This document shows, one piece after another, positions 7,500 to 49,317 of a stretch of 57,905 bases of DNA. Within the stretch, counting starts at the first letter, position 1. Every line of letters starts with the position of its first letter. This DNA is from Pseudomonadota bacterium (lineage in GTDB: Bacteria > Pseudomonadota > Alphaproteobacteria > Ferrovibrionales > Ferrovibrionaceae), in NCBI GenBank assembly GCA_023433835.1, contig JAEYTW010000741.1:1-57905 (forward strand), written 5' to 3'. The translations under genes and the position numbers were made by a program. Under the pieces are notes generated by a model, which worked only from the letters and a program-made list of their open reading frames with translations, made no database searches and was not told where the DNA came from.

Positions 7500-8351
7500 A
7501 TGCGTGATCCGATCGTTGCTCCGTCGCATAGTAGTTTTCCATCAGCGCGGCGGCAGGGTGGTGCGCCACGTCTAGAGCTCGTCACGACAATCCCAATTTC
7601 ACTTCGTGCGGGCCGCGAGTGGTTAAGCCCTGGTCTGGAAGCGTTGCGAACGAGGTTGGATACTGCCGATATTTTTGATCAGTGGTCCCCGCGTGAGCTC
7701 AAGAATACTAAATTTTTGCTTGACCCAGACGAGGAAGCCCTTCTCGGCAGGGCGCGGCTCTTGCTTGGGCAGCCCATAAAGGCGGTGCCTCTGGCAAAGA
7801 TGCCAGCAGGCCAACGGGAGCGATGGCGGGCTGAAAACCCGGAGGCGGTCGTTGTCGACCCCGACCATCCCCGACGCCTCTGGCTCAAAGCAGACGCGCC
7901 CGATTTCGCCCGGCTGGCACGCCTTTATGCCGAGCCGGAATTCCGGCTGTTGGAGCCGCATCCCGCATTGCCAGGCCAGTTGGTCAAGCCTGCGCCTCTC
8001 AATCGCACGCTGACCGCCGCCCTCTTTTGCGCCCTCGACGCCCGCGGCTTCTTTGCTTCGCAGGAATCCGAGATCGCGACGCTTATGAACGCAGGGGCCG
8101 ATGCGATGTCGCTGGCCGAGCGTTTCCGCGCAGCTGCCTCGCCGGCCGGCCGTTGGAATTTCGAGCCGATACAATCGCCCGCAGAGTGGCGGTCATGGGC
8201 CCGGGCCCTGCTGGGGCCAGAAGCGGGCGAGGTCGATCCTGGGGTCGAGGACCTGGCGATCGACGTCGACACCAGCGACGACGCGACTCTGGTGCAGGCC
8301 CTTCGGTTGCTCCGACACGACAGAAATTTATCGCTCCCGATCCCCGGCTGA
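7500..8351 (+). CDS. hypothetical protein
   Basis: 283 aa ORF 8 nt after the previous gene. Coding-like composition, no motif recognised. Its 3' end overlaps the convergent relaxase gene. Confidence 0.45.
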   Translation: MRDPIVAPSHSSFPSARRQGGAPRLELVTTIPISLRAGREWLSPGLEALRTRLDTADIFDQWSPRELKNTKFLLDPDEEALLGRARLLLGQPIKAVPLAKMPAGQRERWRAENPEAVVVDPDHPRRLWLKADAPDFARLARLYAEPEFRLLEPHPALPGQLVKPAPLNRTLTAALFCALDARGFFASQESEIATLMNAGADAMSLAERFRAAASPAGRWNFEPIQSPAEWRSWARALLGPEAGEVDPGVEDLAIDVDTSDDATLVQALRLLRHDRNLSLPIPG

Positions 8352-33593: not shown

Positions 33594-34157
33594 ATGAGGA
33601 AGATGATGAAGAAGTCGATGGCATGCTTCGCCCTTGCAGCAGCGACAGCCTGGGGATGGTTCATGTGGCACTGCGAGCACGTCCTGGCCCAGGCAGCATT
33701 TCAGCCGGGGGCAACCTACCAGACATGTTTTACCCCGCAGGACGATTGCGAAAGCATGATCGTTGGCGCCATCGGCGCAGCGCAGCAACAGATCCTCGTG
33801 CAGGCCTATAGCTTTACGTCGCGCCGCATCGCCGCCGCGCTTGTGAGCGCGAAGCAGCGGGGCCTAGACGTTGCGGTGCTGCTCGATGACGGTCAGCGGA
33901 CGGACCGCTATTCCCAGGCCAGCACGTTGCGGAAAGCGAACATCCCAATTCTGGTCGACGACGGCACCTCCAATGGTCATGCCCATTCCAAGGTGATGGT
34001 TCTCGACAATGCCGTGCTGACCGGGTCGTACAACTTCTCGGCCTCGGCACAGCGCCGCAACAATGAGAACATCATCCTGATCAAGGGGGATGACAGACTC
34101 ACAGCGCAGTTCACGGCGAATTGGAAAGCTCGCCGCGAAGTCTCGAGGCCCTATTGA
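33594..34157 (+). CDS. nuc: phospholipase D-family periplasmic endonuclease (Nuc-like)
   Basis: 187 aa. Signal peptide. HKD motif GHAHSKVMVLDNAVLTGSYNFSASAQRRNNEN. Size and architecture match plasmid Nuc (pKM101 type). Confidence 0.85.
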   Translation: MRKMMKKSMACFALAAATAWGWFMWHCEHVLAQAAFQPGATYQTCFTPQDDCESMIVGAIGAAQQQILVQAYSFTSRRIAAALVSAKQRGLDVAVLLDDGQRTDRYSQASTLRKANIPILVDDGTSNGHAHSKVMVLDNAVLTGSYNFSASAQRRNNENIILIKGDDRLTAQFTANWKARREVSRPY

Positions 34158-35026: not shown

Positions 35027-35746
35027 ATGCCACGACGCCGGCTATGGACACAAGGCATCAGCAGGATGTCGTTGCTGAAGGAGGCGCTCCAAGAGCCCGA
35101 TCCGACGCAGATCATCGGCCAGTGTTTCGACCTGTTATGGCTTAACGGGGAAGATCTTCGGCCCAAGCCCCTGGTCGAGCGGCGAACGGCGTTGCAGCGG
35201 CTTATCGGACCCGACCGGCCGCGCATCCGCTTCAGCCACGCGCTCGAGACGAACACCTCGGCCGAGATGTTCGCGAAAGCCTGCGAAATGGGTCTCGAAG
35301 GCATCATGGTCAAGAACGAGGCCTCGCCCTATCGGTCAGGTCGGCAGAAGTCCTGGTGCAAGGTGCGGTGCCAAGAAGCCCTGGATTTCATCGTCGTTGG
35401 CTATTTCCTGGCTGCGAACGACCCGAGTGCGGTCGGATCGCTTATACTCGCCGCTTACGACGATGTCGGCATGCTGCGCCGCGTCGGCAGCGTGGGCACG
35501 GGGAGGACACCGGAAGCAGCGAGAGATCTACGCCGGCGCCTGGAAAATCGGAAGACCAGCCGGAACCCGTTCCGTGAGCTGCCGCGGGATCGCGGCGTCC
35601 AGTACCTCGAGACGGTGACAGTGGCAGAGGTGGCGACGCGGGGGTGGCTCGGCGGTGAGCTGCGACATGCATCGTTCCGCGGTTTGCGGGACGATAGGCC
35701 GGCGCGCCAGGTGCTTTTGGAACGGCCGGGCGATCGCCGGCGCTGA
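35027..35746 (+). pseudogene. 5'-truncated ATP-dependent DNA ligase (LigD ligase-domain remnant)
   Basis: Contains motifs FDLLWLNGEDLRPKPLVERR, GLEGIMVKNEASPYRSGR, SWCKVRC and the OB-domain part (FIVVGY...GSLILAAY). The adenylation lysine motif (KxDG) and everything N-terminal to it are missing. In-frame stop at 35006-35008. Confidence 0.6.
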
Positions 35747-35760
35747 CCATTGCCGGCGGC

Positions 35761-36120
35761 CTACCGGGCCAGAGCTTGGCGATCGATCGGGCCAGGCGCA
35801 GCGGTGGGTGTCGGCAGGACATGCTTACGGATCAGCACCTCGAGCTCGTCGAGGGCGGCGGTGTAGGCGGCCTGGTAGTGCTCTGCAGGGCTGTCGCCCT
35901 CGTTGATGGCCATCTGGGCCAGGCACAGTGCGATCGCCGCGCGGCCGACGGCCTCTTGCGTTTGCGATGTCAGGCCGCGCCAGCTATCTGCGATTGGAAT
36001 CGGGGCGGGCGCGTCACAGGGTGAGCCAACTGAAATATTCTTTTTAGGTCTCATGACAGCGATTATATAGCCGGTAGCATTCATATTCGATCTTAAGAGC
36101 TTCAAAATCGCTAATGGCAT
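35761..36120 (-). CDS. hypothetical protein
   Basis: 119 aa ORF divergent from the HTH gene. A shorter start (MRPKK) is possible. Confidence 0.35.
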   Translation of the reverse strand: MPLAILKLLRSNMNATGYIIAVMRPKKNISVGSPCDAPAPIPIADSWRGLTSQTQEAVGRAAIALCLAQMAINEGDSPAEHYQAAYTAALDELEVLIRKHVLPTPTAAPGPIDRQALAR

Positions 36121-36178
36121 GATCTTGCTGGAGAAATCGGCCGTTGCTTGAACGAACTTCGGTCGCTAAAGCCGCCCG

Positions 36179-36439
36179 ATGCGGGGACCACAGGTCAGGG
36201 CGGCGAGGGAGTTGCTGGGTATGAGCCAGCAGGACCTGGCTGCACGCGCCGACGTGTCGGTGTCGACGGTGCGAGACATCGAGAACGGCACGGGAGACCC
36301 GCGGCGTTCCAGCATCGAGGCGATCGAGGATTTCCTGATCAGCCAGGGAATTCGGTTCGTCCAGACGCCGGGTGTCATCGGAATGCCGTTGACCACTCCC
36401 CGAGGTCAGGCTTCATCGATCGACGACCGGGACGACTAG
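36179..36439 (+). CDS. XRE-family HTH regulator
   Basis: 86 aa. LRGPQVRAARELLGMSQQDLAARADVSVSTVRDIENG. Convergent 4-nt overlap with the recombinase gene. Confidence 0.75.
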   Translation: MRGPQVRAARELLGMSQQDLAARADVSVSTVRDIENGTGDPRRSSIEAIEDFLISQGIRFVQTPGVIGMPLTTPRGQASSIDDRDD

Positions 36440-37440
36440 GCGCGGCCCTGCAGCCGGGCCAGGTCGGCCATTGCCGACCGTTCGATCTCGATGTCCTCGA
36501 GATAGGGATGGAGAGAATCGGCGTGCTTGCGCCTCTGCGCCTGCAGCACGCCGGCAAGGTTCATGTTGTTGGCGACCATCTCTTGCGCAGCGCCCACCCG
36601 AAACGAATGGCCGCTATAGCCGTCCCCCAACTCGGCGGCCGCGGCCAGGCGCTTGGCCGTGTAGGAAAGCCCGCGCGAGCTTAGCCGTGGCCCGACATTC
36701 CCCCACCGGTCGATCGACCGGAACAGAGCACCGTCGACCAGCTTCGCTGCTTGGCACCAGGCGTCGATCGCGACCATGGTGTCTCGCGCGATGAAAACGC
36801 GCTCTCTTCGTCCGAACTGGTCAGTCTTGCTCTGCGCAATCAACGCGCTTCCGTTGCCGTTCGCTGCCGGCGAAATGTCATCGATGTCGAGCGCCATCAG
36901 CTCTGATTGCCGAGCGGATAGGTCGTAGGCGAGTAGCGTCATTGCCCGATCGCGAAGGCCTCGCAGGGACGTGTCAGTTGTCCCGTGCATCAAGGTGATG
37001 TGGTTGAGCCAGGCGCCCCGTGCATGCCGCTTTCGTTTGCCCAGCGCGCGGGCAACTCGCTTCATTGCCAGGCCGACGTCGGCAATTGAAGTCGGCGACG
37101 GCAATTTTGCGGCCAGGTGGAGCCGGGCGATCGCCCACACTCGCGTCTGGATCGTCGTAAAGCGGTGCTGGGTGGCCAGGTGGTCGATGTAGTCGACCAC
37201 AACCTCCCAGCGCGCCGGCACCGCCGGCGCCTGCCTCGTGGCAGCGAACGAGATCCATCGTTTTAATCCGGTGATCCACGCGGCCAGTGTGTTGCCCGCG
37301 GCGACACCGCGCGACGCCACAAGGTATTGCGCGTATCGGGCGCAGAGCTCCTGATCGCCGCCAGCGGCGATGTTCAGCAATCGGCGCAACACCTCGGCCG
37401 GGTCTTTGGCAACCTGCTTATGTTCACTTTCAGCGGTCAC
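36436..37440 (-). CDS. rci: tyrosine site-specific recombinase, predicted shufflon recombinase (Rci-like)
   Basis: 334 aa. Catalytic-region motifs LSARQSELMALDIDDI (Arg), GHSFRVGAAQEM (HxxR), and a C-terminal LHPYL Tyr. Immediately adjacent to the inverted-repeat cassettes at the pilV 3' end. The tyrosine recombinase call is firm (0.9); the Rci role is inference. Confidence 0.8.
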   Translation of the reverse strand: MTAESEHKQVAKDPAEVLRRLLNIAAGGDQELCARYAQYLVASRGVAAGNTLAAWITGLKRWISFAATRQAPAVPARWEVVVDYIDHLATQHRFTTIQTRVWAIARLHLAAKLPSPTSIADVGLAMKRVARALGKRKRHARGAWLNHITLMHGTTDTSLRGLRDRAMTLLAYDLSARQSELMALDIDDISPAANGNGSALIAQSKTDQFGRRERVFIARDTMVAIDAWCQAAKLVDGALFRSIDRWGNVGPRLSSRGLSYTAKRLAAAAELGDGYSGHSFRVGAAQEMVANNMNLAGVLQAQRRKHADSLHPYLEDIEIERSAMADLARLQGRA

Positions 37441-37453
37441 CGATGAACCGACT

Positions 37454-37463
37454 TGTAATTACA
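37454..37463. promoter_or_regulatory. TGTAATTACA box 4, just upstream of the recombinase start
   Basis: Read directly. Lies 14-23 nt upstream of the start at 37440. The flank TGTAATTACATAATCGC resembles box 3 (TGTAATTACAAATCGC). Confidence 0.55.
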
Positions 37464-37618
37464 TAATCGCGGTCATGTACGCCGAATTCGCGGCATAGAC
37501 CACCCTAAACAGGGTCCGGCTCGGCCTTGCCCCCCGATCGCAGGCCGATAACGCCCGTCCTCGGGCGCCAGGGGGCTGGCCCGCGGTGCGCCGCTATTCC
37601 AGGAGGCAGGATCAGAGA

Positions 37619-37637
37619 TAAACCGCTTTATTGCGAT
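37619..37637 (+). repeat. shufflon crossover repeat, copy 1 (TAAACCGCTTTATTGCGAT)
   Basis: Identical 19-mer to copy 2. Encodes KPLYCD in frame with cassette C. Confidence 0.8.
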
Positions 37638-37850
37638 AGAGCATCAAGCACATTCTCGACTATGGCTAGTCGAGCAACGATCAGTTTTGCGGTAAAAACA
37701 TGGGCACAGAACGGCTGGACAAGTCAGGCACCAGCCTGCCCAGTAGATAGTTTCGAGGCGACCCCTTCATATATTTCGGAAGTAATATACGATCCCGCGA
37801 CAGGGTGGCTTATTCACTATACACGGTGGTGCTGGAAGTACGTTAATTAG
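37638..37850 (+). other. silent alternative PilV C-terminal cassette C
   Basis: The frame continues from the repeat: (KPLYCD)RASSTFSTMASRATISFAVKTWAQNGWTSQAPACPVDSF...YTRWCWKYVN, stop at 37848-37850. No independent RBS or start at the repeat. Low GC. Confidence 0.7.
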
Positions 37851-37898
37851 CCAATGAATCCAATTCTCGAGATTTCGGTTTCATTATACCATTTTCGG

Positions 37899-37917
37899 TA
37901 AACCGCTTTATTGCGAT
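37899..37917 (+). repeat. shufflon crossover repeat, copy 2
   Basis: TAAACCGCTTTATTGCGAT. With flanks, 37897-37916 is a 20/20 inverted match to 38462-38481. Confidence 0.8.
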
Positions 37918-38220
37918 TCAGGAAGTTCAACCTTCCAGCAGGTGGCAGGAGGTGGCGGAACGTTCCCCCATACTTGCCATGAGGCTTTCCCGTCAGGCTT
38001 CTTGCAGTTCTTACCTGCATATTCGGATCCGGCGATTGCCACGGCTGGCCCCGACGGGTTCTATAGCTCATGGGGCTTCACTACCTGCAATCCGCCGGCT
38101 TGCCCGACCGGAACAACCCAAAGGGCGCCGAAAACCTGCCAAGGTGTTTCGATTATGAATACCCCTGGCAACTATTATCCCACCTATTCGTCCTATCAGT
38201 GCACAATATGGTGCGGATAA
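37918..38220 (+). other. silent alternative PilV C-terminal cassette B
   Basis: (GKPLYCD)SGSSTFQQVAGGGGTFPHTCHEA...CNPPACPTGTTQRAPKTCQGV...YQCTIWCG, stop at 38218-38220. This is 3 nt from the convergent stop of the expressed segment. Paralogous to expressed segment A. Confidence 0.75.
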
Positions 38221-38223
38221 AGC

Positions 38224-39342
38224 TTAGCCGCTGCACCAGCGTTCACAGGTAGCGACATACGTCCAGCAGCCGGAACCGCAGGTGTCATATCGCCAGGCCC
38301 ACGAACATTTCTGCGGACCGCGCTGCGTTTCCGTGGCGTCGCACGCGGGCGGCGTACACATATTATCGAATACGATTCCCATCGCGTTTCCTTCGGCGGT
38401 GCACATGGTTCGACGGGTATAACCGCCGCCGGCGATCGCCTTGAATGTGGCAGACCCTGAGTCGCAATAAAGCGGTTTACCGTCGGCGTCCTGGACCAGG
38501 CCGCCGACGTCGGTCGCGGCGACGCAACTGTCGCCAGCCGCCTTGACCGCCGTTGATCTTAGGTACCCCGCGGTGGTCACATTGCCGCCGCTCAGAATCT
38601 TTCCCGTGGTCGTCACCTGGTTGATGTCAGCGATGCTGTTTCCGCCCAGGGACAGGTCGTGCTGCATGGTGTACGCGGTGGCAGGCATGCCTGGCGTGCG
38701 GTAGAGGTAGTTCGACATGGTTTGCCCCTGTGTGAGGCTGCCATAGACGACCGGCTGCCGCGTCGCCCAAGTGACGCCGGCGCCGGCGAAGTTCGCGGTC
38801 TGAAGGCCCTGGCCTCCTACGATGGTCGCGACGGCCGAGCTGCTGGCTGGGGTATAGCCGCCGCGCGCGCCAACCCGCTTCACGAACTCACCAAGATCGG
38901 CCTCTGGCAGTGCCAGGCCCCCGACAACCGTCGTCACCCATTCCAACTGGCCGGCAGCCGGGCGACGAACCACGGAAACGATCGAGCCTCCATTGATGCC
39001 GGTGACCGGGTCGGAGGCTCCGAGGAGGCTGACGGTCTGCAGCATGGCCGGCGTGATGACGGCCGGAGATCCGCCGGCGCTGGCGATCGCCGCTTCGATC
39101 ACGGAGAAATAGTTCTTCACATACTCGGCCGTTGCGTCCGCCACAATCGATGCCTGCTCGCCCAGAACACGCGCTTCGGACACGCGATCGCTGCGGTCGG
39201 TGCTGCTGATCCCGCTCGTTGCGAGGATGGCGATGACCAGCAGCATCCCGAGCATCTCCATAACGGTTAGCCCGGCTTCCGCTACGCGGCGTGCTCGCTT
39301 GTGGAGAGGGCGACGAGTTTGATCAGGACCTTGTTTCATCAC
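38224..39342 (-). CDS. pilV: PilV-like type IVb minor pilin / tip adhesin with a switchable C-terminus
   Basis: 372 aa. Prepilin leader ...RRVAEAG|LTVMEMLGMLLVIAILA (Glu at +5). Cys-rich C-terminal segment. Last gene of the pil operon. The start (GTG 39342 or ATG 39339) overlaps the pilM-like stop. Confidence 0.8.
   Translation of the reverse strand: MMKQGPDQTRRPLHKRARRVAEAGLTVMEMLGMLLVIAILATSGISSTDRSDRVSEARVLGEQASIVADATAEYVKNYFSVIEAAIASAGGSPAVITPAMLQTVSLLGASDPVTGINGGSIVSVVRRPAAGQLEWVTTVVGGLALPEADLGEFVKRVGARGGYTPASSSAVATIVGGQGLQTANFAGAGVTWATRQPVVYGSLTQGQTMSNYLYRTPGMPATAYTMQHDLSLGGNSIADINQVTTTGKILSGGNVTTAGYLRSTAVKAAGDSCVAATDVGGLVQDADGKPLYCDSGSATFKAIAGGGYTRRTMCTAEGNAMGIVFDNMCTPPACDATETQRGPQKCSWAWRYDTCGSGCWTYVATCERWCSG
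38462..38479 (-). repeat. shufflon crossover repeat, copy 3 (inverted, inside pilV)
   Basis: TCGCAATAAAGCGGTTTA is the reverse complement of TAAACCGCTTTATTGCGA. It encodes GKPLYCD of the expressed PilV, 79 codons before its stop. Confidence 0.8.
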
Positions 39343-39845
39343 GCACCCGTGTAGGAGAGCAGGACGGCAACGCCATCCGGCACTACGATTGGAAGGACGA
39401 TAGGGGTTGTTCCTGCAGCGGCCCGAATGGGCATCACCGTGCCTGCTCTGGCGATGCCAAATGCCATGTCAGCGCCGCCGGCCTCATAGATCGCCGATCC
39501 CAGCCAGCCCGATCCGGCTCCACCGGGTAGGGCGCCGCCCACATAGGTGACGACCGCCCGGCCAGGCCCGGACGACCCGGATACGATCGAAATCCACGGC
39601 CCCATCTTGACGAAGGATGCTGCGTAAGGCGCCACCATCCCAGCCGCGGCCTCCGCATCGGTCGCGGTCCCGGAAAACGAGGCCTGGCCTGATGACTGGG
39701 CGAAGGCGAGCACGCCCTGGTGATAGAGCAACATGTTCACGGCCAGGGAGCCGATCTCGGCCCGAGGCGACCACGCCATCGTCGTCTCTTGAGGGACGCC
39801 CGTCATGTTCAGGAAATAGGCCAGCACCAGACCGATTAAGTACAT
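39339..39845 (-). CDS. PilM-like (R64-type) pilus biogenesis protein
   Basis: 168 aa. N-terminal TM helix, Gly/Ala-rich body ending TPIVLPIVVPDGVAVLL, as I recall for R64/ICE PilM. Position is next to pilV. Confidence 0.45.
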   Translation of the reverse strand: MYLIGLVLAYFLNMTGVPQETTMAWSPRAEIGSLAVNMLLYHQGVLAFAQSSGQASFSGTATDAEAAAGMVAPYAASFVKMGPWISIVSGSSGPGRAVVTYVGGALPGGAGSGWLGSAIYEAGGADMAFGIARAGTVMPIRAAAGTTPIVLPIVVPDGVAVLLSYTGA

Positions 39846-39849
39846 ATCC

Positions 39850-40938
39850 TCACCTCACCATCAGCTTGGTGCCGTTGCGCAGCGACGACGTCCATTTCTG
39901 GACCATCGCCGGAAGCAGTTCCAGCCGGCCCGACCGGATCGTCGACCTGATGGGGCAGTCGGGAGTCAAGCTGCATTCGATGGCCTCAACGATTTCGATC
40001 GCCAGGCTTTCACCAGCTCCCTGAGGCGCCAGCCGCGTCATGACCGCCGCTCGCAACGATATCGCCAGTAGATCAAGCGCCGCGTGCCCACGATGCTCGC
40101 CGGCAAGCCGTGCGACCTTCGAAAGACCAGCGGTCAGGTCAAGTCCGTGGCCTGTGGCCAACACAAGGGGGCCATTTGCACCGCAAGTCAGCGTAGCGTT
40201 CGCTGTCGCCGGCGTGCGGTATTCACCGATCAGGACATGTCGGACGCCAGACCGCATGACCCGCTGGATCTGCCCCGGGAATTCATCCTCGTCGGAAAGG
40301 TCACATTGGAGGATGCGAGCTTCGCTCGTCGCTTTCCGCCGAGCATCGTCGGCCATAGCGACCTTACCACCGAAGGTCCCCCAGCTCGGTCTCGCTTCAT
40401 GGCCGGCCGATAGATCCAGGACATTTTCGACGGGCGCTTCCAAGGTCTGAGCTGCAAGTCCAGACATGCCGACCCAAGACATCAGCATTGCCCCTGCAAG
40501 GGTGGTCTTCCCGCTACCCATGTCACCCAGAACAAGGACGAGGCCGGTACTGGCCGCGCCGTCCGGCGATGGTTGGGCCAGGCCAGCCAGCCAGGTCTGC
40601 CAAACCGGCGGAACGCCGATTTGGTCGAGCCGCAATGCTGGCTGCCGCGAACGCCGCAGGTACAACGCGTGACCGTCGATGTTCTCGAACAGCGTGATGC
40701 GATATCGCTGGCCATCGTGACCAACAGCATATTCCCGGCGCAGGTCCGACTGTGGGGGCAAGGCCGCGACGAGCTTGGCTAGATCCGGCAAAGCTGCAGC
40801 TGGCAGCTCCCGATCGCGAAACCGACCTCCCGAGGAATCTCGCGCAGTGGGCGCCCAGCGATCGGATAATCGCCAGGCGCCCCCAACGAGATCAAGAGGA
40901 AGAGTGAGCGATGTCAGCTCACTGTCTGCCAGCCGCAT
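39850..40938 (-). CDS. PilT/BfpF-like secretion ATPase (second ATPase of the pilus operon)
   Basis: 362 aa. Walker A LVLGDMGSGKTT. RYRITLFENIDGHALYLRR (PilT-like N-domain). VLIGEYRTPATANATL...GPLVLATGHG (Asp/His-box region). Confidence 0.65.
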   Translation of the reverse strand: MRLADSELTSLTLPLDLVGGAWRLSDRWAPTARDSSGGRFRDRELPAAALPDLAKLVAALPPQSDLRREYAVGHDGQRYRITLFENIDGHALYLRRSRQPALRLDQIGVPPVWQTWLAGLAQPSPDGAASTGLVLVLGDMGSGKTTLAGAMLMSWVGMSGLAAQTLEAPVENVLDLSAGHEARPSWGTFGGKVAMADDARRKATSEARILQCDLSDEDEFPGQIQRVMRSGVRHVLIGEYRTPATANATLTCGANGPLVLATGHGLDLTAGLSKVARLAGEHRGHAALDLLAISLRAAVMTRLAPQGAGESLAIEIVEAIECSLTPDCPIRSTIRSGRLELLPAMVQKWTSSLRNGTKLMVR

Positions 40939-40941
40939 GGT

Positions 40942-41505
40942 TCATTTCGCGGTGAGACGAATTGCATTGAGAGCCGTGGCGCACGCGCCGTCGGCGGTCG
41001 TCAGGCTGACTGGTACCGCAGTCGAAGTCGCACTGGCCACCGAAGCTTGCGTCGCGGCTACCTGGACCGCACTCGTGAACGATCCGGAGCTCAGTTTCGT
41101 CAGAATGGCGATGCAAGATTCCTTGGGAATATTATCTCCGTCGACGTAGAAAGTGCTGTTGGCGCCAGTAACGACGTACTGGCCGGAGAATGGGTTGACG
41201 AGCGACGTTCCGCTGATCGCCCCGTCCGGCGCCGCTTTTGCGTTGATGAGGGACGACGAGCTGATAACGGCAGTGCCATATCGTGTATTTGCCGGCTGCG
41301 ACCGATACTGCGATTTGACGCCCGAGATGATGTACTTGACGTCATCCATATAGCGCGTCTCGTCGAGCCATTCGGTGAGCTTGGAAAAACCGTAGGCGCC
41401 CATCGTGCCCAGGATGCCGACGACGATTAGGACACCCAGCATCTCCATGACGGTAACACCGGCCTCATTGGCGAGCGTACGGCGGAGGCTCTTGTTCATG
41501 AGCAT
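40942..41505 (-). CDS. pilS: type IVb major prepilin (PilS-like)
   Basis: 187 aa. Long leader MLMNKSLRRTLANEAG|VTVMEMLGVLIVVGILG with Glu at +5. C-terminal Cys pair. Confidence 0.8.
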   Translation of the reverse strand: MLMNKSLRRTLANEAGVTVMEMLGVLIVVGILGTMGAYGFSKLTEWLDETRYMDDVKYIISGVKSQYRSQPANTRYGTAVISSSSLINAKAAPDGAISGTSLVNPFSGQYVVTGANSTFYVDGDNIPKESCIAILTKLSSGSFTSAVQVAATQASVASATSTAVPVSLTTADGACATALNAIRLTAK

Positions 41506-41517
41506 GTCAATTTTCCT

Positions 41518-42672
41518 TTACCGGATTGAATTGTTTGCGGCCATTACGACTGCGACGCTGCCGATCACCTGCAGGATGAACATGAGCATCATCAGTGCCT
41601 CGGCGAAGAGCGCGACGCGCGTGGCGCCGCGTTCAATGTCGGCCAGCGCCTGCTTCGCTTTGTCATCGGCGATGGAGTGCAAGGTTTCCACGAAGGCGTC
41701 ACCGCCGCGGTCGGCTGCCAACCCGATCGGCATCGCCGATGTCGGAGAGAGCAAATAGATGTTGGTATGTTCGAGCCCCTCTCTGACGCCGGCGCCGTCG
41801 ACCTGGTCAGCATATGCCTTGAGCCTGATTCTTGTGTACCGGCCGGCCGTGTCGGCCACAGCGCGCAGGGCGTCAACATTGTTCACGCCAAGTCCTGCTA
41901 GCATCGCCCAGCCGCGTAGGAATGTGATCTCGCCCAAAGCGCGCTGGATCGAGAATGGCGGAAGCCAGAAATCGACGAGCACGCGTGATCGGCCATTCCA
42001 GACCTGGATGACGAGCCATAGCAATCCGAGCAACAGGAGCGGCGCCAGCAGCACCAGCAGCCAATGATCCTGCACGAATTGCAGGCTGCTGATGTATCCG
42101 CGCGCAGCTGCTGACCCTTCGATGCGCGCATAGAGGCTCGGCTTCGTATAGGTCGGAACCACCTTGCCCGCCGTGTACACTGTCGAGCCGAGCATCATCA
42201 GCGAGTAGAAGACGGTCTTTCCGAGGGGCTTGATGCCCTCGGAGAGTGCCCTCGCGCGTTCACGGCCGTCTTTCGCTATCGTGCGGAGCACGGTGGCGAG
42301 AGTGGCAGTGCCTCGAGATTCCGCAAGGCTGATTGAGCCCAGTTCTGACTTCGGTATCAAGCCGGCAAGTGCTGGCGGCCGCCCGCCCGCGTCCATGCGT
42401 GCCAGGAACGAGCCATCCTCAAGCCTTTTCGCGATAAGATCCGCGACCGATGCCAGGTGCGACTGCCGGAGGATCCACGGTCCACTCTGGGCGGCCGTTG
42501 CCAGGTGGCGAGCCGTCGTCGCCGGGTCGGCGCCGGCCAGAAGGGCCGACGCCAGCTCATTGTAGACCATGTATCTGGTGGACCGGCCGAGGCGGCCAAA
42601 TGAGGCTTTGGAGGCCGCGGCCAGCAGGCTCCGCCGGGGCCTCAGGAGTTCGATATCCGCTCGCGTTGTCAT
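41518..42672 (-). CDS. pilR: GspF/PilC-family platform protein (PilR-like)
   Basis: About 384 aa from the ATG at 42672 (1 nt after the ATPase stop). Polytopic with three hydrophobic segments and a cytoplasmic helical domain. Canonical position after the ATPase. Confidence 0.6.
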   Translation of the reverse strand: MTTRADIELLRPRRSLLAAASKASFGRLGRSTRYMVYNELASALLAGADPATTARHLATAAQSGPWILRQSHLASVADLIAKRLEDGSFLARMDAGGRPPALAGLIPKSELGSISLAESRGTATLATVLRTIAKDGRERARALSEGIKPLGKTVFYSLMMLGSTVYTAGKVVPTYTKPSLYARIEGSAAARGYISSLQFVQDHWLLVLLAPLLLLGLLWLVIQVWNGRSRVLVDFWLPPFSIQRALGEITFLRGWAMLAGLGVNNVDALRAVADTAGRYTRIRLKAYADQVDGAGVREGLEHTNIYLLSPTSAMPIGLAADRGGDAFVETLHSIADDKAKQALADIERGATRVALFAEALMMLMFILQVIGSVAVVMAANNSIR

Positions 42673-42673
42673 C

Positions 42674-44353
42674 TCAGCCCACCTTCGCGGTTGCGATGAA
42701 CGGCGCCCGTGGCGTCCGCCAGAAGGGGACAGGTGCAATCGATGCCGCGTCCAGCGGGTCGATCATGCCGGCGTTCGCCTTCTCCCACGCGTGGTCGAGC
42801 AGCCGCATCTTGCTGGCGGGTACGTCCGATCGGCTTTCGACATATTGGTATAGCTCTTGGGCCTGGCTCGGGCCGGCGGCGATCAGCTCGAGGACTCGCG
42901 CGTCCGTCAGGACCATCTCGGCGACGAGTTCCCGGCGGACCGTTCCGGTACCGCCGCAGGTCGTGCACGGTTCCGAACTATTTTGCTCGACAGTCCCGTG
43001 GGCCCCGCGAACGAAGATCTTGTTGCGGTCGAGCTCGGCCGCGATCGCGGGCCCATAGGCTTCGATCGCCCTCTCGATGCGAGCAACATCCCGGTGGTTT
43101 CGCCGGCGGATATCGACCAATGGGACGCGGCAGTCCGGACAGAGCCGCGGCAGCAACGCCTGGCCCCCCAACAGGCGAGTGAGGCGACGGTCGTAGACCA
43201 GGCCGGGATCGACACCGAGATCGTTCGTTAGCCGACGGGGAATCTGAAGTGGTTCGTCGCTATGGATCGAGCCCACAACCCAGATGCCGGACACACCCGT
43301 CCGGTAGACCATCGACCCGGTCGACTGATTGCGGGTTTCACCCACCATGACCTTGTGCGGCCGGCCGCGCAGAACTTCGCGAAGACGCTCTGCGAACCCA
43401 AGGCGCAACGCGGGGTCTGCATCCTCGTTGGCGACCAGGCGGCGAGCGCCCTTGATCGGTATTTCCGGGGGATCTTCCACCATGTACTGGTGCTTGCGCC
43501 AGCCGTAGTGTTCCTGGATCGCGCGCATGACCGCGGCCAGCGTGACGGTTTTGCCGCTACCCGTCTGGCCCGTGAGCCATATGACCGCCGAACGCCAGTG
43601 GATGGCCTCAAGCCAGATCGCCAGGTGGTCGGGGTGAAGGCCCAGCTTATCGATGCTATGAGCCCAGTCCGAGCGAACCAGCCGTATCACGACGCTCAAA
43701 GCGTCGGCTTCGCTGAAGAACTGGCACCTGATGGCTTCGAGCTTCTTGAAGGCCGCCCGGGTCTGGTCGCCATGGGCGTGCTTCATCAGCTGGCTATGGC
43801 TGGCGGTGGCCGTCGGATTGCTGATTTCGTCGAGCGATCCGAATTTCTGATCGCAAATTGCATTCCATAACAGATTGCGCCACGTGCTTGCGGTTCGTCG
43901 GTCGAGCGGCTTCGGATCGGTCAGTTCATCTGCAATGCAGAACTGATAGGCGGCATCCTGCCCGTTTCTCGTGAGAACGAGAATGATCTCCTCGGCGTCG
44001 CTCGTGACAGCGGTGACGAACAGGTTGATCAATTGCTCGAGCTCGGTGCTCTGCCGGCTCACGCGATCGAGTGCACCACCGTAGAGTGCCGCGACCTGGT
44101 TGGGGTCGACCTTGATGAGAGCACTGGATATAAGCCCCGCGTTGGAGACCTTCGAGCGGATCGATGTCAGGAGGGACGGCGGTGCCGAGCTCGACTGGAC
44201 GATGATGACGTTCAGTGTGCCGGGCGAGCCGGCTTCGGCCGGCCTAATGACTGCAAAATGCGTGCGTTCGTCCGCCGACAGCGAAATGCTTCCGCCCGCG
44301 GCCGTCAGCAGGTCCCCTTCAGGCAGAATGCTCGAGGTCGCGAACTGATTCAC
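42674..44353 (-). CDS. pilQ: GspE/PilB-family pilus assembly ATPase (PilQ-like)
   Basis: 559 aa. Walker A LTGQTGSGKTVT. VMVGETRNQSTG, WVVGSIHSD. Tetracysteine motif CPDC...CTTCGGTG. GTG start overlaps the pilP stop. Confidence 0.85.
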   Translation of the reverse strand: MNQFATSSILPEGDLLTAAGGSISLSADERTHFAVIRPAEAGSPGTLNVIIVQSSSAPPSLLTSIRSKVSNAGLISSALIKVDPNQVAALYGGALDRVSRQSTELEQLINLFVTAVTSDAEEIILVLTRNGQDAAYQFCIADELTDPKPLDRRTASTWRNLLWNAICDQKFGSLDEISNPTATASHSQLMKHAHGDQTRAAFKKLEAIRCQFFSEADALSVVIRLVRSDWAHSIDKLGLHPDHLAIWLEAIHWRSAVIWLTGQTGSGKTVTLAAVMRAIQEHYGWRKHQYMVEDPPEIPIKGARRLVANEDADPALRLGFAERLREVLRGRPHKVMVGETRNQSTGSMVYRTGVSGIWVVGSIHSDEPLQIPRRLTNDLGVDPGLVYDRRLTRLLGGQALLPRLCPDCRVPLVDIRRRNHRDVARIERAIEAYGPAIAAELDRNKIFVRGAHGTVEQNSSEPCTTCGGTGTVRRELVAEMVLTDARVLELIAAGPSQAQELYQYVESRSDVPASKMRLLDHAWEKANAGMIDPLDAASIAPVPFWRTPRAPFIATAKVG

Positions 44354-45114
44354 AAGCGGTCTCCCCAGCGAACCAGCTTCGTTACTTTTCCCGGTTGCGT
44401 GACAGTGACGCCTGCTCGGTCGATCGCGGACACGCGACGACCGCCAGGCAGGACCTCACCGATTGCGAAGAGGGCTTCCCGAGCATCCACGTAGAGCCTC
44501 GCACGGAGCCCGCGTACCTCCGGTGCCCCGGAGTAGCCCAAGGCGATCACGATCGGTTCTGCTGGGGGTGCAGCCGGCGCCGTGGGGGCGGATTTGACCT
44601 GGTCCTTCGGCGTGGCAATGCCTGCCGTGATCCGCACCGATGACAACTTCGCTGCGTAGCGCCGATCCGCCCACTGCTCGAGCCTGACGAGCATCGATCC
44701 GGCCGGCGGTAACATCAGGTCGGCCGGCGGCGGCGGCACTGGCTGCGGCGCGGTGTTTTCGGCGTTCGCCGCCGGCCTTTCGGTCCCGATTGTCTCCTGG
44801 GGCAGTTTCTGTTCGATTGGCTGGCTAGGTGGAGCCGCCGATGGTGACAAGGGCCAGATGTCCGGCGGTGGGGGTGGTGCTGCCGCTGTCTGCGGCGCAA
44901 CCGCCGGCGTTGCCGGCGGCGGCGCGAACGACGCGCCTATCGGCGGTGCATTTGCGCCAGTTGGCGATACCGGAATTCCGAGCATGGGAGGTGGCAGAAG
45001 CGAACGGGGTTCCCCCGCCGAGCTCGTCGGGCCAAAAGACGGCATGTCGCCCGCGAGCGCCGGAGACACGGTCATGATGATCGTCGCACCGACGAGAAGG
45101 GCTTTAGCGGTCAT
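44350..45114 (-). CDS. PilP-like pilus biogenesis protein
   Basis: Signal/TM MTAKALLVGATIIMTVSPALA. Long Pro/Ala-rich spacer. C-terminal beta domain ARLYVDAREALFAIGEVLPGGRRVSAIDRAGVTVTQPGKVTKL. Confidence 0.55.
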   Translation of the reverse strand: MTAKALLVGATIIMTVSPALAGDMPSFGPTSSAGEPRSLLPPPMLGIPVSPTGANAPPIGASFAPPPATPAVAPQTAAAPPPPPDIWPLSPSAAPPSQPIEQKLPQETIGTERPAANAENTAPQPVPPPPADLMLPPAGSMLVRLEQWADRRYAAKLSSVRITAGIATPKDQVKSAPTAPAAPPAEPIVIALGYSGAPEVRGLRARLYVDAREALFAIGEVLPGGRRVSAIDRAGVTVTQPGKVTKLVRWGDRL

Positions 45115-46657
45115 TGACGGAGCCCTTAATGCCCCAGGCGACATCCTGGCCTCGACGATCCATGGTCAGGTCCGTGATGGCGGTGCCAGGCACAGCCAGC
45201 AGGCGTGCCCGCCATGCCTCGGGACCGATCGGCGAATTATCGATGCTGAAATCCATTGATTGCTCTGCGGGCCCCTGAGCTGCTGGCGTGGCCCCCGGGA
45301 GAACAGCTGCTGGAATGGCAGCGGATGTGCCGCCTCCGACCGGAATTGCTGCGCGGAGGCCGTCCTGGAGTATCCGCTGCCTGCGGGCAACGACAGGCGC
45401 GAGATCGGCAAGCCGATCGTCGGCGGCAGCGGACGAAGTTGCCCGCGGGAGTCGTGATCGAGCACCTATCGACGCCGACCGCCCGTCTGGGCTCCACGAC
45501 ACGAAGCGGTCAGCGCCAATCACATCCCTGGGGCGAGCCGCCGGCGGCGTAGCGTCCGCAACGGAGGCGATGGCCCGGGCGAGCACCTCTGGAAAGATCC
45601 GGCCGTCGGTTGTGGCTTGCGCCTGCCACTCGATCGACCATTCGAAGCCGTCCTCAAGGTCGTCGAAATCCGCCCGAGGTATGACCTGACACGTGGCTCT
45701 CTGCCATTGCCACCCTGCGGCCATCGTCGCGGATCCTGGCACGGCGATGTCGAGCCAAGGCGCCCAAGCAGACCTGCAACGGTCGATAACCCAGCCTGGC
45801 GCTGGCCAGCGGGCGCCGCCGACGGGAACCGGCTTGGGCGGCGGCGGCGGCTCGACAGCCACCACTTCCACGGGCTTCGGCTGGAATAGCCGGAACGTCT
45901 TAAGAACGACCGGTGTCGTGATGACGGCCCCGACCACCAGCGCCGCGATGCTCACGGCGGCGACCAGGCGCTTCGCGGGGAGGGCTGGAGACACCACGGC
46001 GCCGCGGCCGAGAACGAGCCGTGCGGCGCGCTCTGTGATGGGATCGCGGCTGTCGATCTCCGTGAGGAGCGGTAGCAGATCGACCCGGGTGAAGCCAGGC
46101 CAGTCCCATGCACAAAGCCGTTTTGCCTGAGCGCCGACGGATAGGAAGGCTTCGTCGAACTTCAATTTCAGGAATTCGAGCCAGGCCGCGTCAGTCATGT
46201 CGGCCGTGCGGCGGAGCACCACGTCTTCAATGACGATGCCGCCACCCACGACAATCAAAACCGCGCGCCCTGGCAACACTGCGGCGTCGGCCATCCCTGC
46301 AACTCGAGGCTGATCGTCCGGGAGCGGCCATATCCCGGCAAATGAATATGCCATCTCACGGGCGAGCATCGCAGCGCCCGCCAGCCACTGGCTACCGGGT
46401 GGCGTAGACCTGGGCCCATCGACCTTGGCCACGCCATAGCCGCCCACGGCACCGGCCCGGTACCAGGCCATCGCCGACGCTCGCGTGCTGCGCGCGGCCG
46501 CAGCCGCTTCACGGCGCGCTTTGCCGGCCGCGCTCTCGCTGGCCCAGCGCAGCCCGAACACGACCTCGATCGGCTTCCTGGCCTTTAACCGGACGATGGT
46601 GAGGGCTGGGAGGTCGGCGTTGGGCTCTATCGCTGGCCGGAGGGCCTTGGCCAGCAT
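45104..46657 (-). CDS. PilO-like (type 4b PilO2) pilus biogenesis protein
   Basis: ATG at 46657, 1 nt after the secretin stop. N-terminus TIVRLKARKPIEVVFGLRWAS fits my recollection of PilO2. One central TM helix (LVAAVSIAALVVGAVITTPVVL). Confidence 0.5.
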   Translation of the reverse strand: MLAKALRPAIEPNADLPALTIVRLKARKPIEVVFGLRWASESAAGKARREAAAAARSTRASAMAWYRAGAVGGYGVAKVDGPRSTPPGSQWLAGAAMLAREMAYSFAGIWPLPDDQPRVAGMADAAVLPGRAVLIVVGGGIVIEDVVLRRTADMTDAAWLEFLKLKFDEAFLSVGAQAKRLCAWDWPGFTRVDLLPLLTEIDSRDPITERAARLVLGRGAVVSPALPAKRLVAAVSIAALVVGAVITTPVVLKTFRLFQPKPVEVVAVEPPPPPKPVPVGGARWPAPGWVIDRCRSAWAPWLDIAVPGSATMAAGWQWQRATCQVIPRADFDDLEDGFEWSIEWQAQATTDGRIFPEVLARAIASVADATPPAARPRDVIGADRFVSWSPDGRSASIGARSRLPRATSSAAADDRLADLAPVVARRQRILQDGLRAAIPVGGGTSAAIPAAVLPGATPAAQGPAEQSMDFSIDNSPIGPEAWRARLLAVPGTAITDLTMDRRGQDVAWGIKGSVNDR

Positions 46658-46658
46658 G

Positions 46659-48542
46659 TCAGCCGCCGCCTCCTTGGGCCGTCGCGTCCGTTGCAACCCT
46701 CGCGGCCGAACCACTCGCCGGCTCGTCGTCGACCTGTAGCGGTGTAACGAGCAGGGCGAACCGTTGGCGCTTGCGCATGGCGTTCTCGCCACCGCCGAGG
46801 ATCCAGTTCCAGAACCAACCGACGCCTGACTCGTTGAGCACCCGGCGATCTTGTGCGAAGCCCGTGATCACGAAGGTGTCACCCGACCGCACAACCGGAA
46901 ACTGCCCGGTGGCCTGATTCGTCTGATCCGGGCTCTGCAGCGTGATGCTGCCGGCGCCCTGCCCGGAAGTCACGGGGACGAAGGTAGCGTCGCTGGCATT
47001 CGAATAGCCCAGGGCCAGCGAAATCCGCCCGTCATCCAGGACGCGCGGGATCGCGATCATGGTGTAGCCGCTCAGCGCGAAAGACAGGCTGGCGCCGCCG
47101 GACAATGTGGCGGTGCCAGTGCTCGTTGCGCCCGTGACGCTTCCGAGATAGCCCTGGCTTCGGGCGTTGGTCAGGGACACCGGTGTGTTCGACAAGGTCG
47201 TCACAGCGGTCGAGTATTCTACCGACAATCGGTTGTTCGCACTGAGGGCCTGCAGCGCCGCTTTCGTGCCGGCCCATTTCTGGGCTGCGGACGATGCGTT
47301 CGAGGGCGGCGGTGAGATGAAGCCTGTGCTGTAGGAGCCAGTCCCGGTCACATTTGAGAGTGCCGACGGCCCGGTGAACGCCACCTGAAATCCGGCGTCC
47401 TGGAAAGTCGCCGCCAGGTCGAGCGCATATGCATCCTGCTGATCGGATTCATAGGAGACGATCGCCAAGTTGACCGTCACCTGGCGGCTGGCGACGGCGC
47501 GAAGCTTCGAGACGATCGGTTCAACTCGATCCATCACATCGCGCGGCGCGGTGATGATCACGTCGCCAGTTGAGGGCATGAGCGCAAAGTCGCCTTCCGG
47601 CACCATGCTCTCGAGGGCCTTCTGCAGATCAGCCCACATCTTCGTCGAGGCCTCTGCCGTCATCTGCTGCAGAGACGACCCGCCGCTTGAGCTGCTGCGG
47701 GAACCGCTACCCGAGCTACCAGACCCTCCGGATGATGAAGAACCGGAATTACTTGAACCGGACCCGCCTGACGACCCGCCCGCCATCGAGCCCCCGCCGG
47801 TCGTGCCGATGAGCGTAGTCGCCTCGACAGACTGGGCGGGGAAGGTCCAACTCCGGGTCACATACCGAGACAGCCGAATTGCACCCCGATTGAATTCCCA
47901 GCTGCACCCAAATGCCGCGGCGAGGTAATCGGCATATCCTGACGCCGGACCGACGTAAGACGGCACGATGGCATTGGCCTGGCCATATGAGGTTACCGGC
48001 GCGCCTGGTAAGGCGGGGCCAGCACCAGGTGGCGCGAGCGGGTTCCCGGCATAGGCACCAAAGGCCTGCGGCAGACCTGCTGCGACGGGCCCCAGCGGTG
48101 CCGCCGCTGTCCCCGGCGTCGCGGCGGCCGTAGTCGTTGCGGCCAGGCCGCGCCGTGCCGCCGGCGGAGAACCGCACCCGTCGACAAGCCGCATCGCGAT
48201 TCCAGTTTCTGCCGTGAAGCGGCTCGCGAGCTGCTGCAGCGAGAACGGGGACGTTTCCCCGATCTGGTATCCCTTCTGGGTCTCGACCTTCTCCGGGAGC
48301 TTCGGCCGGATCGTCTCGCGAATAACAACGCCGCCGCCATACGGGCGGTCCACCCGGCGCATGACCGGGTTCACCGCCCGGTCGATGTTCTTCGCGGCCT
48401 GAACGGCTGCGTCGGCCTTCTTCATGTCGCCTGGCAAGGCTTCCTGATTGGATTTGTAGGTTTCGCAGGAGACCAGGCCCAGGGCTGCGACGGCGGCAAC
48501 CGCGGCCCTGAGGCGCGCGCGATTATTCATCGACCGGGACAT
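46659..48542 (-). CDS. pilN: lipoprotein secretin (PilN-like)
   Basis: Lipobox AALGLVSC. C-terminal secretin domain (...FPVVRSGDTFVITGFAQDRRVLNESGV...RFALLVTPLQV). Ser/Gly low-complexity insert. Start at 48542 or 48530; the track start at 48611 overlaps pilL by 89 nt. Confidence 0.8.
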   Translation of the reverse strand: MSRSMNNRARLRAAVAAVAALGLVSCETYKSNQEALPGDMKKADAAVQAAKNIDRAVNPVMRRVDRPYGGGVVIRETIRPKLPEKVETQKGYQIGETSPFSLQQLASRFTAETGIAMRLVDGCGSPPAARRGLAATTTAAATPGTAAAPLGPVAAGLPQAFGAYAGNPLAPPGAGPALPGAPVTSYGQANAIVPSYVGPASGYADYLAAAFGCSWEFNRGAIRLSRYVTRSWTFPAQSVEATTLIGTTGGGSMAGGSSGGSGSSNSGSSSSGGSGSSGSGSRSSSSGGSSLQQMTAEASTKMWADLQKALESMVPEGDFALMPSTGDVIITAPRDVMDRVEPIVSKLRAVASRQVTVNLAIVSYESDQQDAYALDLAATFQDAGFQVAFTGPSALSNVTGTGSYSTGFISPPPSNASSAAQKWAGTKAALQALSANNRLSVEYSTAVTTLSNTPVSLTNARSQGYLGSVTGATSTGTATLSGGASLSFALSGYTMIAIPRVLDDGRISLALGYSNASDATFVPVTSGQGAGSITLQSPDQTNQATGQFPVVRSGDTFVITGFAQDRRVLNESGVGWFWNWILGGGENAMRKRQRFALLVTPLQVDDEPASGSAARVATDATAQGGGG

Positions 48543-49317
48543 CAGATCCTCCGACGGCGCTGATCGCCAATGTGTTGGTATAAAGCGTCCCGATCGGGCG
48601 AGCCGGGACATCGGCCCAGCCCGACAGCAGGTATGGCACCGCGTCGGTGAAATAGCCTTCGCAGCGAATGGTCGCCTTCAGGGGATAGCGCAGTCCTCGA
48701 GCGTGCCAAGCGAGGTCAAAGAGCTCGGGATCGCCGAGATCCTGCTTGATGGCATCCACCCACGACGCCAGTGACGAATGCAGGTCAGATCCTTGACGCG
48801 CGCTCCACACCCGCCAGCGGCCGATCGGCCGAGGATCTTCCTCGCCAGGTCGGGCGCACAGCGTCATACGATTGTCGGCCGACGCGGGCTCGGCCGCCGC
48901 CGAAGCCGGGGGCGGTTGGACAGCGGCAGACGCGACCGCTGCGACCAGTGGCTGGTTGGGGACAGCTGGAACAGAGCCGGCAGGGGCTTGATCGGCTGGC
49001 CCGATCCACAGCATGCCGGCGGCGCCTTCGACCGCGGCCAAGCCAGCGGGCGAGAGCATTGCGGCCAGGCTTCGCCGCCAGCTCGGGCCACCGCGCCACG
49101 AGACCTTCAATTTGCGGTCAACCACCGCGCTGATCTCGACCGCTACTGCGGGGGGTACGATCTGGTAGACGGCCAGCTCGAGCGGGACACCAGAGGCGAA
49201 GCCCGCAACCGGCCCATCCGTTGCAGCTTGGTTGGCCGAGCGTGCTGCCGGCTGATGCAGAGCAACGGACAGAACAATGCCGAATGCGACGGCTTTAGCG
49301 GACATTGGTCGCACCAA
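48523..49317 (-). CDS. PilL/TcpQ-like pilus biogenesis protein
   Basis: 264 aa. Signal peptide. C-terminal region QGSDLHSSLASWVDAIKQ...WHARGLRYPLKATIRCEGYFTDAVPYLLSG resembles the TcpQ/PilL domain. Confidence 0.5.
   Translation of the reverse strand: MVRPMSAKAVAFGIVLSVALHQPAARSANQAATDGPVAGFASGVPLELAVYQIVPPAVAVEISAVVDRKLKVSWRGGPSWRRSLAAMLSPAGLAAVEGAAGMLWIGPADQAPAGSVPAVPNQPLVAAVASAAVQPPPASAAAEPASADNRMTLCARPGEEDPRPIGRWRVWSARQGSDLHSSLASWVDAIKQDLGDPELFDLAWHARGLRYPLKATIRCEGYFTDAVPYLLSGWADVPARPIGTLYTNTLAISAVGGSDVPVDE

Follow-up and report, generated by a model that had tools for sequence, protein, structure and literature searches.

A probable three-cassette pilV shufflon served by a Cre-like recombinase on an alphaproteobacterial conjugative element

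We analysed contig JAEYTW010000741.1 of a Pseudomonadota bacterium placed in the alphaproteobacterial family Ferrovibrionaceae (assembly GCA_023433835.1), the whole 57,905-nt stretch being referred to below as the window, and conclude that the 3′ end of its pilV-like gene very probably belongs to a three-cassette shufflon that is carried by a conjugative element and worked by the Cre-like tyrosine recombinase encoded next to it. Shufflons are the textbook case of programmed multiple inversion. At this locus cassette A is joined to pilV as assembled, cassettes B and C lie silent downstream, and three copies of a short repeat (R1 within pilV, R2 ahead of B and R3 ahead of C) stand at the junctions. 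Inversion exactly at these sites occurs in a sister element and in related elements, and we infer that the window copy is switching at present as well. The non-orthologous recombinase, the site and the host class are new here; the logic of the shufflon and the targeted pilV codon are known.

In the mechanism that we propose, the minus-strand pil operon, which ends in pilV, would supply both transcription and the pilus machinery, and cassettes B and C, having neither promoter nor start codon, would be expressed only when joined to pilV. The Cre-like enzyme would perform a conservative crossover within the 18-bp sequence TAAACCGCTTTATTGCGA. Recombination of R1 with R2 would invert 581 bp (37899–38479) and fuse the 294-codon constant region to B, giving PilV-B, and recombination of R1 with R3 would invert 861 bp (37619–38479) and give PilV-C, leaving R1 and R2 as direct repeats. 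When the inversions between inverted sites are enumerated, four arrangements result, which would express three adhesins. By analogy with R64, the alternative C-termini would alter the recipient surfaces that the thin pilus binds during mating.

Repeats and cassettes at the 3′ end of pilV

The repeat, TAAACCGCTTTATTGCGA[Y], is 18 or 19 bp long and is present once within pilV and twice downstream in the opposite orientation. Written as a 19-mer, TAAACCGCTTTATTGCGAT, it is exact on the plus strand at R3 and R2 (37619–37637 and 37899–37917), and R1, on the minus strand, carries a single mismatch in its last base (C), all three sites being perfect across 18 bp. No further copy was found in the 57.9-kb window with up to three mismatches permitted, and three matches by chance were obtained in 0 of 100 shuffles. 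This search and the shuffles confirm the three copies, two on the plus strand and one inverted, that an initial annotation made from the sequence had reported, with two small corrections. The third copy, which had been located correctly and as an 18/19 match but placed at 38462–38479, starts one base earlier, at 38461, and the inverted repeat that includes the flanks, given as 20 bp (37897–37916 and 38462–38481), is indeed perfect and measures 21 bp (37896–37916 and 38462–38482). R1 and R3 have nothing in common outside the 18/19 bp.

The pilV-like gene divides at R1 into a constant region of codons 1–294 (38461–39342) and cassette A of 78 codons (38227–38460, with a minus-strand stop at 38224–38226), the latter lying within the invertible region. 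Its product has a type IVb prepilin leader (...RRVAEAG, followed by LTVMEML), and in tblastn searches it matches genes annotated as 'shufflon system ... tip adhesin PilV' at 25–32% identity, with E values down to 5e-15. The Pfam domain Shufflon_N (PF04917) was found in five of eight family members (best E 4.4e-16), the near-identical protein P0002 among them.

Downstream of each plus-strand repeat, the reading frame that the repeat sets stays open to a stop (37848–37850 for C and 38218–38220 for B), and the claim that neither cassette has a start of its own holds: B has an in-frame stop 14 codons 5′ of its repeat and no start ahead of its conserved part, and upstream of C the sole start is the TTG at 37527, which falls where the sequence is not conserved. 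All three cassettes share a D-x-x-S-x-F/Y start and an (R/I)WC end, which bears out their description as paralogues, and A and B are about 75% identical across the 60 nt past the repeat. The stops of A (38224–38226, minus strand) and B (38218–38220) face each other 3 nt apart, as had been described. The GC content is 0.47–0.57 over 37600–38300 vs 0.60–0.70 in the flanks and backbone, in agreement with the drop noted earlier across 37600–38220, and the low GC of the cassettes fits their circulation among hosts or elements of other composition.

Inversion isomers and array differences among relatives

Loci of relatives were fetched from protein clusters and numbered with the window as L001. The PilV subfamily is rare, with 4–5 clusters in 1.84 billion representative proteins (full HMMER scan; 453 PilV-like matches). 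An inversion can be read directly from the pair L006 (NCBI) and L027 (JGI, on a 136-kb contig), which are 100.000% identical across two flanks (4815 nt and 2168 nt) and in which the 852-nt segment from R1 to R3 is exactly inverted, at 99.88% identity. L006, with a recombinase 62% identical to that of the window, expresses A and holds B and C silent, as the window does. L027 expresses C, and its arrangement (R1+ C> R2+ B> <A R3-) is exactly the order predicted after recombination of R1 with R3. A chimera made in silico from the constant region of L006 and its silent cassette C was found verbatim in the protein collection by exact look-up, as P0273. In this pair of isomers base 19 of the repeat (C or T) has followed its cassette through the inversion, unlike the outer GG/GA, which has not moved, and this puts the crossover inside the 18 bp.

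The nearest relative of the window is L002, from an Aliihoeflea metagenome-assembled genome (MAG), with a recombinase 99% identical, cassette B expressed and cassettes A and D silent. BLASTN aligned the window to L002 along a collinear backbone of 92–95% identity that ends at R1 and resumes at R3. Between these points, window positions 38479..37896 match L002 in inverted orientation, C is replaced by the unrelated D, and the cassette B that is silent in the window is fused to PilV in L002 as P0002. Thus the search of related assemblies for isomers, which the initial annotation had put forward as a check, returned both the exact inversion of L006/L027 and the inverted A/B segment of the window and L002.

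Over the family as a whole, the expressed position is held by A in the window and L006, by B in L002, L015 and L028, and by C in L013, L023, L027 and L029. L015, from a Rhizorhabdus MAG, holds A and D silent behind its expressed B. The short Logan contig L026 (1–954) expresses a cassette of another type, E (...WYWECERWCFKD), followed by a direct repeat heading B and then by an inverted D, and five or more cassette types thus occur in the family. In L027 and L026 a cassette persists between direct repeats, and a two-cassette array exists in L028.

The silent cassettes evolve as coding sequence. For orthologous pairs with unsaturated dS, the ratio of non-synonymous to synonymous substitution rates (dN/dS) of the cassettes is 0.05–0.25, with values of 0.05–0.09 for cassette B and 0.10 for cassette D, compared between L002 and L015, neither of which expresses it. 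The silent C of the window and that of L006 are 73% identical in amino acids and 67% in nucleotides. Purifying selection begins right at the repeat, and no conservation between elements is seen upstream of cassette C. Taken together, the isomers, the inverted A/B segment of L002, the expression of B and C in relatives and the selection on silent cassettes support the original proposal of a multiple-inversion switch giving three PilV C-termini.

A further line of evidence comes from contig ends. Logan assemblies are built as de Bruijn graphs with k=31 (PMC12424806), and six Logan contigs with the recombinase start at the first 31-mer holding a base that separates flanks or cassettes. Repeats of 18–27 bp are too short to branch a k=31 graph, so alternative junctions would be present in those samples.

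Some relatives are locked. The derivatives L013 (5380–6100), L023 (5862–6369) and L029 (4244–4820), each fixed on a cassette of type C, have a recombinase that is shortened or missing and silent cassettes that are likewise absent or incomplete; their repeats have degenerated at the DNA level (CTTTACTG; TAGCTCCCCTATTGCGAC), while pilV keeps the protein motif KPLYCD. L013 has a half-deleted recombinase and a truncated silent A, L023 has neither recombinase nor silent cassettes and a repeat mutated at a synonymous position, and L029 retains a remnant only of the recombinase and a decayed remnant of the repeat; L013 and L029 thus lost recombinase and repeats together. L006, for its part, has two synonymous changes relative to the other elements that recur in each of its copies of the site (TAAGCCCC; site variant TAAGCCCCTTTATTGCGA, in 3/3 sites). 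These shared changes and the decay of the sites after loss of the recombinase argue for a constraint on the sites at the level of DNA, beyond that on the protein.

Whole arrays differ as well. Comparing window 37619–38479 with L002 10768–11635, we found the A/B segment to be only 84% identical, with a backbone at 92–95%, and between L006 (5074–5925) and L028 (4795–5440) the backbone is 99% identical and A/B/C are replaced by B'/D. In these array differences the homology breaks exactly at the outermost repeats, the backbones being 92–99% identical, which suggests, on comparison of the sequences, that whole cassette arrays may be exchanged site-specifically between elements.

Three wider searches added little. 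When JGI metagenome contigs were scanned for GGTAARCCSCTTTATTGCGA, seven loci came up, all of them single copies without cassettes and hence chance matches; a scan of GTDB genomes with the recombinase alignment returned one locus only, L015; and a word-indexed protein search with the PilV alignment, in-silico chimeras included, returned only four matches.

The recombinase, its sites and their genomic setting

The tyrosine recombinase gene reported directly beside the repeats is borne out by its PF00589 match and lies about 180 bp from R3. Compared with P1 Cre by family profile, its product gives an hhalign probability of 98% (E 2.4e-13, 280 columns) at 24% identity across both domains; phmmer against all PDB chains retrieved only Cre and Tre (E 5e-12 to 9e-9, residues 43–327 of the 334-residue query), and the phage and plasmid matches that tblastn found in E. 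coli are cre. From the Cre alignment, the catalytic residues are R177, K205, H278, R281 and Y313. In contrast, homology to Rci of R64 (NC_005014) could not be found, with a BLASTP E value of 1.9 and a family-profile hhalign probability of 0.2%. The name 'Rci-like' given to the enzyme at first thus stands for its position and presumed role but not for homology, and the profile comparison with Rci that had been proposed as a check showed no relationship. We conclude from these comparisons that the recombinase is Cre-like and that its kinship with Rci is undetectable beyond the tyrosine-recombinase fold. Neither the recombinase nor PilV has a specific model in NCBIfam.

All known shufflon invertases have an additional domain at the C-terminus, which Cre does not possess (PMC11852207). 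The window recombinase ends 7 residues past the region aligned with the end of Cre and is without the Rci C-terminal domain; as the Cre alignment spans nearly the whole protein, there is no room for such a domain.

Wherever upstream DNA is present, homologues of the recombinase at 61–66% identity adjoin pilV cassette arrays, and the linkage of recombinase and array is kept in L002, L006, L015, L027 and L028. The best plasmid relative, on Methylobacterium pVL1_3, is 35.6% identical and has no pil context, which limits the shufflon linkage to the clade at or above 61% identity. A gene of the XRE helix-turn-helix (HTH) family also stands beside the recombinase wherever downstream DNA is available (L001, L002, L006–L012, L015, L027 and L028) and is a candidate regulator of switching. 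Downstream of the recombinase and HTH genes in L027, a 115-nt unit is repeated in tandem about 13 times with 85% matches (7534–9032); the window has no such array.

The locus resembles the shufflon of R64/IncI1 in targeting pilV at its 3′ end, the gene belonging to a type IVb thin-pilus operon carried by a conjugative element, in the order of pilV, cassettes and recombinase on the same strand, in the short in-frame repeats at the junction of constant and variable parts, and in silent cassettes that face each other. The site is likewise asymmetric rather than palindromic, and it occupies the same position in the protein, the sfx codons S357-C-Q-S-G361 aligning by BLASTP with Y-C-D-S-G here. The two systems differ in that the recombinase here is no Rci homologue and is without the Rci C-terminal domain, in that three sites and three C-termini are present here vs seven and seven in R64, and in that the hosts here are high-GC Alphaproteobacteria. 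The site sequences are also unrelated. The sfx sequence is GTGCCAATCCGGT, and the 13-mer of its core and right arm, GTGCCAATCCGGTNNNTGG, occurs seven times in R64; in the window this 13-mer has only chance-level matches with two mismatches, none of them at the locus, which agrees with the statement in the initial annotation that the repeat is unrelated to sfx. Moreover, relative to the Cys codon the conserved bases lie towards the constant region here and towards the cassette in R64.

Small pilV shufflons are also found in Salmonella SPI-7 and in IncI2 variants. Those of Gammaproteobacteria and Betaproteobacteria that are served by Rci-homologue invertases share with the present locus the small size, the few cassettes and the adjacent tyrosine recombinase. 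The phage switches Gin, Cin and Min use serine invertases with an enhancer and Fis and act on tail-fibre genes; they are alike in swapping the C-terminus of a receptor-binding protein by DNA inversion and unlike in their serine recombinases, their sites and their targets, phage tail fibres vs a conjugative pilus. Cre/loxP of phage P1 is the closest characterised relative of the recombinase, with R, K, H, R and Y conserved. In contrast to loxP, which consists of perfect 13-bp inverted arms and an 8-bp spacer and at which Cre deletes or inverts according to the orientation of the sites, the site here is 18 bp long, has no dyad symmetry above chance, lies within a coding frame and is present in three copies; the enzyme also has Arg at the position of Cre W315.

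A broader proposal, which we put forward tentatively and hold to be somewhat doubtful, is that a recombinase of the Cre family became, by a recruitment separate from that of Rci, a 'shufflase' acting at multiple copies of an asymmetric 18-bp site that lies in frame. Such an enzyme would tolerate direct repeats without deletion, and it would also use the sites at the two outer ends to swap whole arrays between co-resident elements, in a natural form of recombinase-mediated cassette exchange. Such exchange would explain why backbones 92–99% identical hold unrelated arrays with breaks at the repeats.

The features of the locus and of the neighbouring pilus operon are given in Table 1. Besides these, the window encodes a MobA/MobL relaxase, a CagX/VirB9-like protein, topoisomerase III and a UmuC-like polymerase, and its gene content marks it as a conjugative plasmid or an integrative and conjugative element (ICE). 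A megablast search of 36000–40000 against the PLSDB plasmids gave no match, hence no close annotated relative is present there, and a promoter and terminator scan gave signals at chance level. An ICE integrase at a tRNA gene was considered and rejected: ARAGORN called a 98-nt tRNA-Asp at 35856–35953 (plus strand), but the call lies inside a conserved 119-residue open reading frame (ORF; 35761–36120, minus strand), has no Rfam match at E≤1 and is most likely a false positive, and neither att nor tRNA context pointing to an integrase was evident.

Two neighbouring genes deserve mention in their own right. An ATP-dependent DNA ligase gene (35027–35746, plus strand) appears 5′-truncated, its product having 239 amino acids vs 330 in the L002 orthologue and matching only the last third of the adenylation domain. 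A gene of the phospholipase D (PLD) family, nuclease-like, lies near the pil and recombinase region (33594–34157, plus strand), and the R64 transfer region has a phospholipase D family gene as well (L005 10431–10982).

Table 1. Features of the putative shufflon and of the adjoining pilus operon in the window
Feature	Position	Strand	Basis or remarks
pilV-like gene, assembled state (PilV-A, 372 aa)	38224–39342	-	ORF; tblastn to annotated PilV tip adhesin genes
Site R1	38461–38479	-	Inside pilV, sense orientation; encodes (G)KPLYCD; homology of window and L002 breaks and inverts exactly here
Silent cassette B	37918–38220	+	100 codons and stop 38218–38220; ends ...YQCTIWCG
Site R2	37899–37917	+	Inverted vs R1; heads silent cassette B
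Silent cassette C	37638–37850	+	70 codons and stop 37848–37850; ends ...RWCWKYVN
Site R3	37619–37637	+	Inverted vs R1; heads silent cassette C; ~180 bp from recombinase start; L002 backbone homology resumes exactly here
Cre-like tyrosine recombinase (334 aa), presumed shufflon invertase	36436–37440	-	PF00589, E 2.9e-10
XRE-family HTH gene	36179–36439	+	PF01381, E 3e-13; convergent with recombinase gene, whose stop it overlaps by 4 nt
Type IVb pilus operon	39339–48611	-	PF07419, PF00437, PF08805, PF00482, PF07655, PF00263
PilM-like	39339–39845	-	Pfam
PilT/U-like ATPase	39850–40938	-	Pfam
PilS major pilin, type IVb	40942–41505	-	PF08805
PilR-like platform protein	41518–42738	-	Pfam
PilQ-like ATPase	42674–44353	-	Pfam
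PilN-like secretin	46659–48611	-	Pfam

Alternative readings and implications

Several observations weigh against a shufflon that is active in the window and driven by this enzyme. The four assemblies with P0001 or P0003 are all contiguous across the region and in state A, and neither of the proteins PilV-B and PilV-C predicted for the window was present in the collection when looked up exactly, with either of two start codons; the expectation that inversion would fuse the PilV constant region to B or C is thus borne out in related elements (L006/L027 and L002) but not in the window's own assemblies, four of four of which are in state A. The contig ends seen in Logan could also be produced by co-resident variants with different arrays. 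The window PilV itself has no Pfam Shufflon_N match. The recombinase has the non-canonical R304 at the position of Cre W315, and the site on which this Cre-like enzyme is presumed to act is without dyad symmetry of the lox or dif type, its best arm complementarity of 6–7/11 equalling the shuffled mean of 6.7, where loxP scores 11/11. The part assigned to the recombinase as the catalyst of inversion is drawn from its linkage to the arrays, and the role of PilV as an adhesin that determines recipient specificity is presumed from the R64 analogy.

The likeliest alternative is that this is a genuine shufflon by descent whose window copy is now locked, through a silent or inactive recombinase or a negligible rate of inversion, with B and C as relics. 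The uniform state A of the four unbroken assemblies would follow from it, and derivatives of that kind exist in L013, L023 and L029. In those relatives, however, the recombinase is gone and the repeats are degraded or missing, whereas the window keeps an intact recombinase ORF with its catalytic residues, three sites without a mismatch across the 18 bp, and two silent cassettes that are both undamaged and conserved. As such, we consider a locked copy unlikely, a shufflon that still switches being the reading we prefer.

Considerably less probable still is that RecA-dependent homologous recombination at the repeats and the homologous cassette starts produced the rearrangements and that the recombinase serves multimer resolution or integration. 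The natural role of Cre in P1 is dimer resolution, the window enzyme is Cre-like, and the ~75% identity of A and B past the repeat offers some homology. RecA-dependent recombination needs roughly 25 bp to work efficiently, and the breakpoints fall inside 18 bp of identity, below that minimum; the isomers L006 and L027 are related by an R1×R3 event, yet R1 and R3 are alike only over 18/19 bp. In addition, the recombinase is linked to arrays in divergent elements and was lost with the repeats in L013 and L029, and the window holds no other copy of the site, no lox-like site elsewhere and no tRNA or att context for the enzyme to serve. It is scarcely credible that B and C are small genes in their own right or duplicated pseudogene copies of the 3′ end of pilV: a mechanical TTG-start ORF (37527–37850) does cover cassette C, but the stop of B 14 codons upstream of its repeat with no start before the conserved part, the unconserved sequence 5′ of C, the fusion of identical cassettes to PilV in relatives and the onset of purifying selection at the repeat all argue otherwise.

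With the shufflon reading thus preferred, its novelty can be placed. PilV is listed among the inversion targets in systematic screens (PMC9881135), and, to judge by the literature consulted (PMC11852207, PMC9881135), the pilV shufflons described so far are those of Gammaproteobacteria and Betaproteobacteria, with recombinases of the Rci family where these have been characterised. Literature searches found neither an alphaproteobacterial shufflon nor one driven by a Cre-like enzyme, and the word 'shufflon' occurred in none of the top-ranked papers retrieved for it together with alphaproteobacterial genus names. The suggestion in the initial annotation of an undescribed lineage of this switch is accordingly supported by the Cre-like enzyme, the non-sfx site and this null result. 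Katalinic et al. (2025, PMC11852207) identified Rci homologues by their homology to Rci and by the presence of repeats near the recombinase gene; the window recombinase is out of reach of homology searches that start from Rci.

The same switch thus appears at the same PilV codon in Alphaproteobacteria, on elements of Hyphomicrobiales and Sphingomonadales, with a different recombinase lineage and another site, and this raises the question of whether the recombinase was replaced in an old shufflon or whether two systems converged at a natural domain boundary. As a compact relative of Cre with a short asymmetric site, the enzyme could serve as an orthogonal tool for shuffling or barcoding sequences in vivo. 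For the elements themselves, the diversity of cassettes, with at least five types, and the swapping of arrays suggest that determinants of recipient range circulate among environmental conjugative elements.

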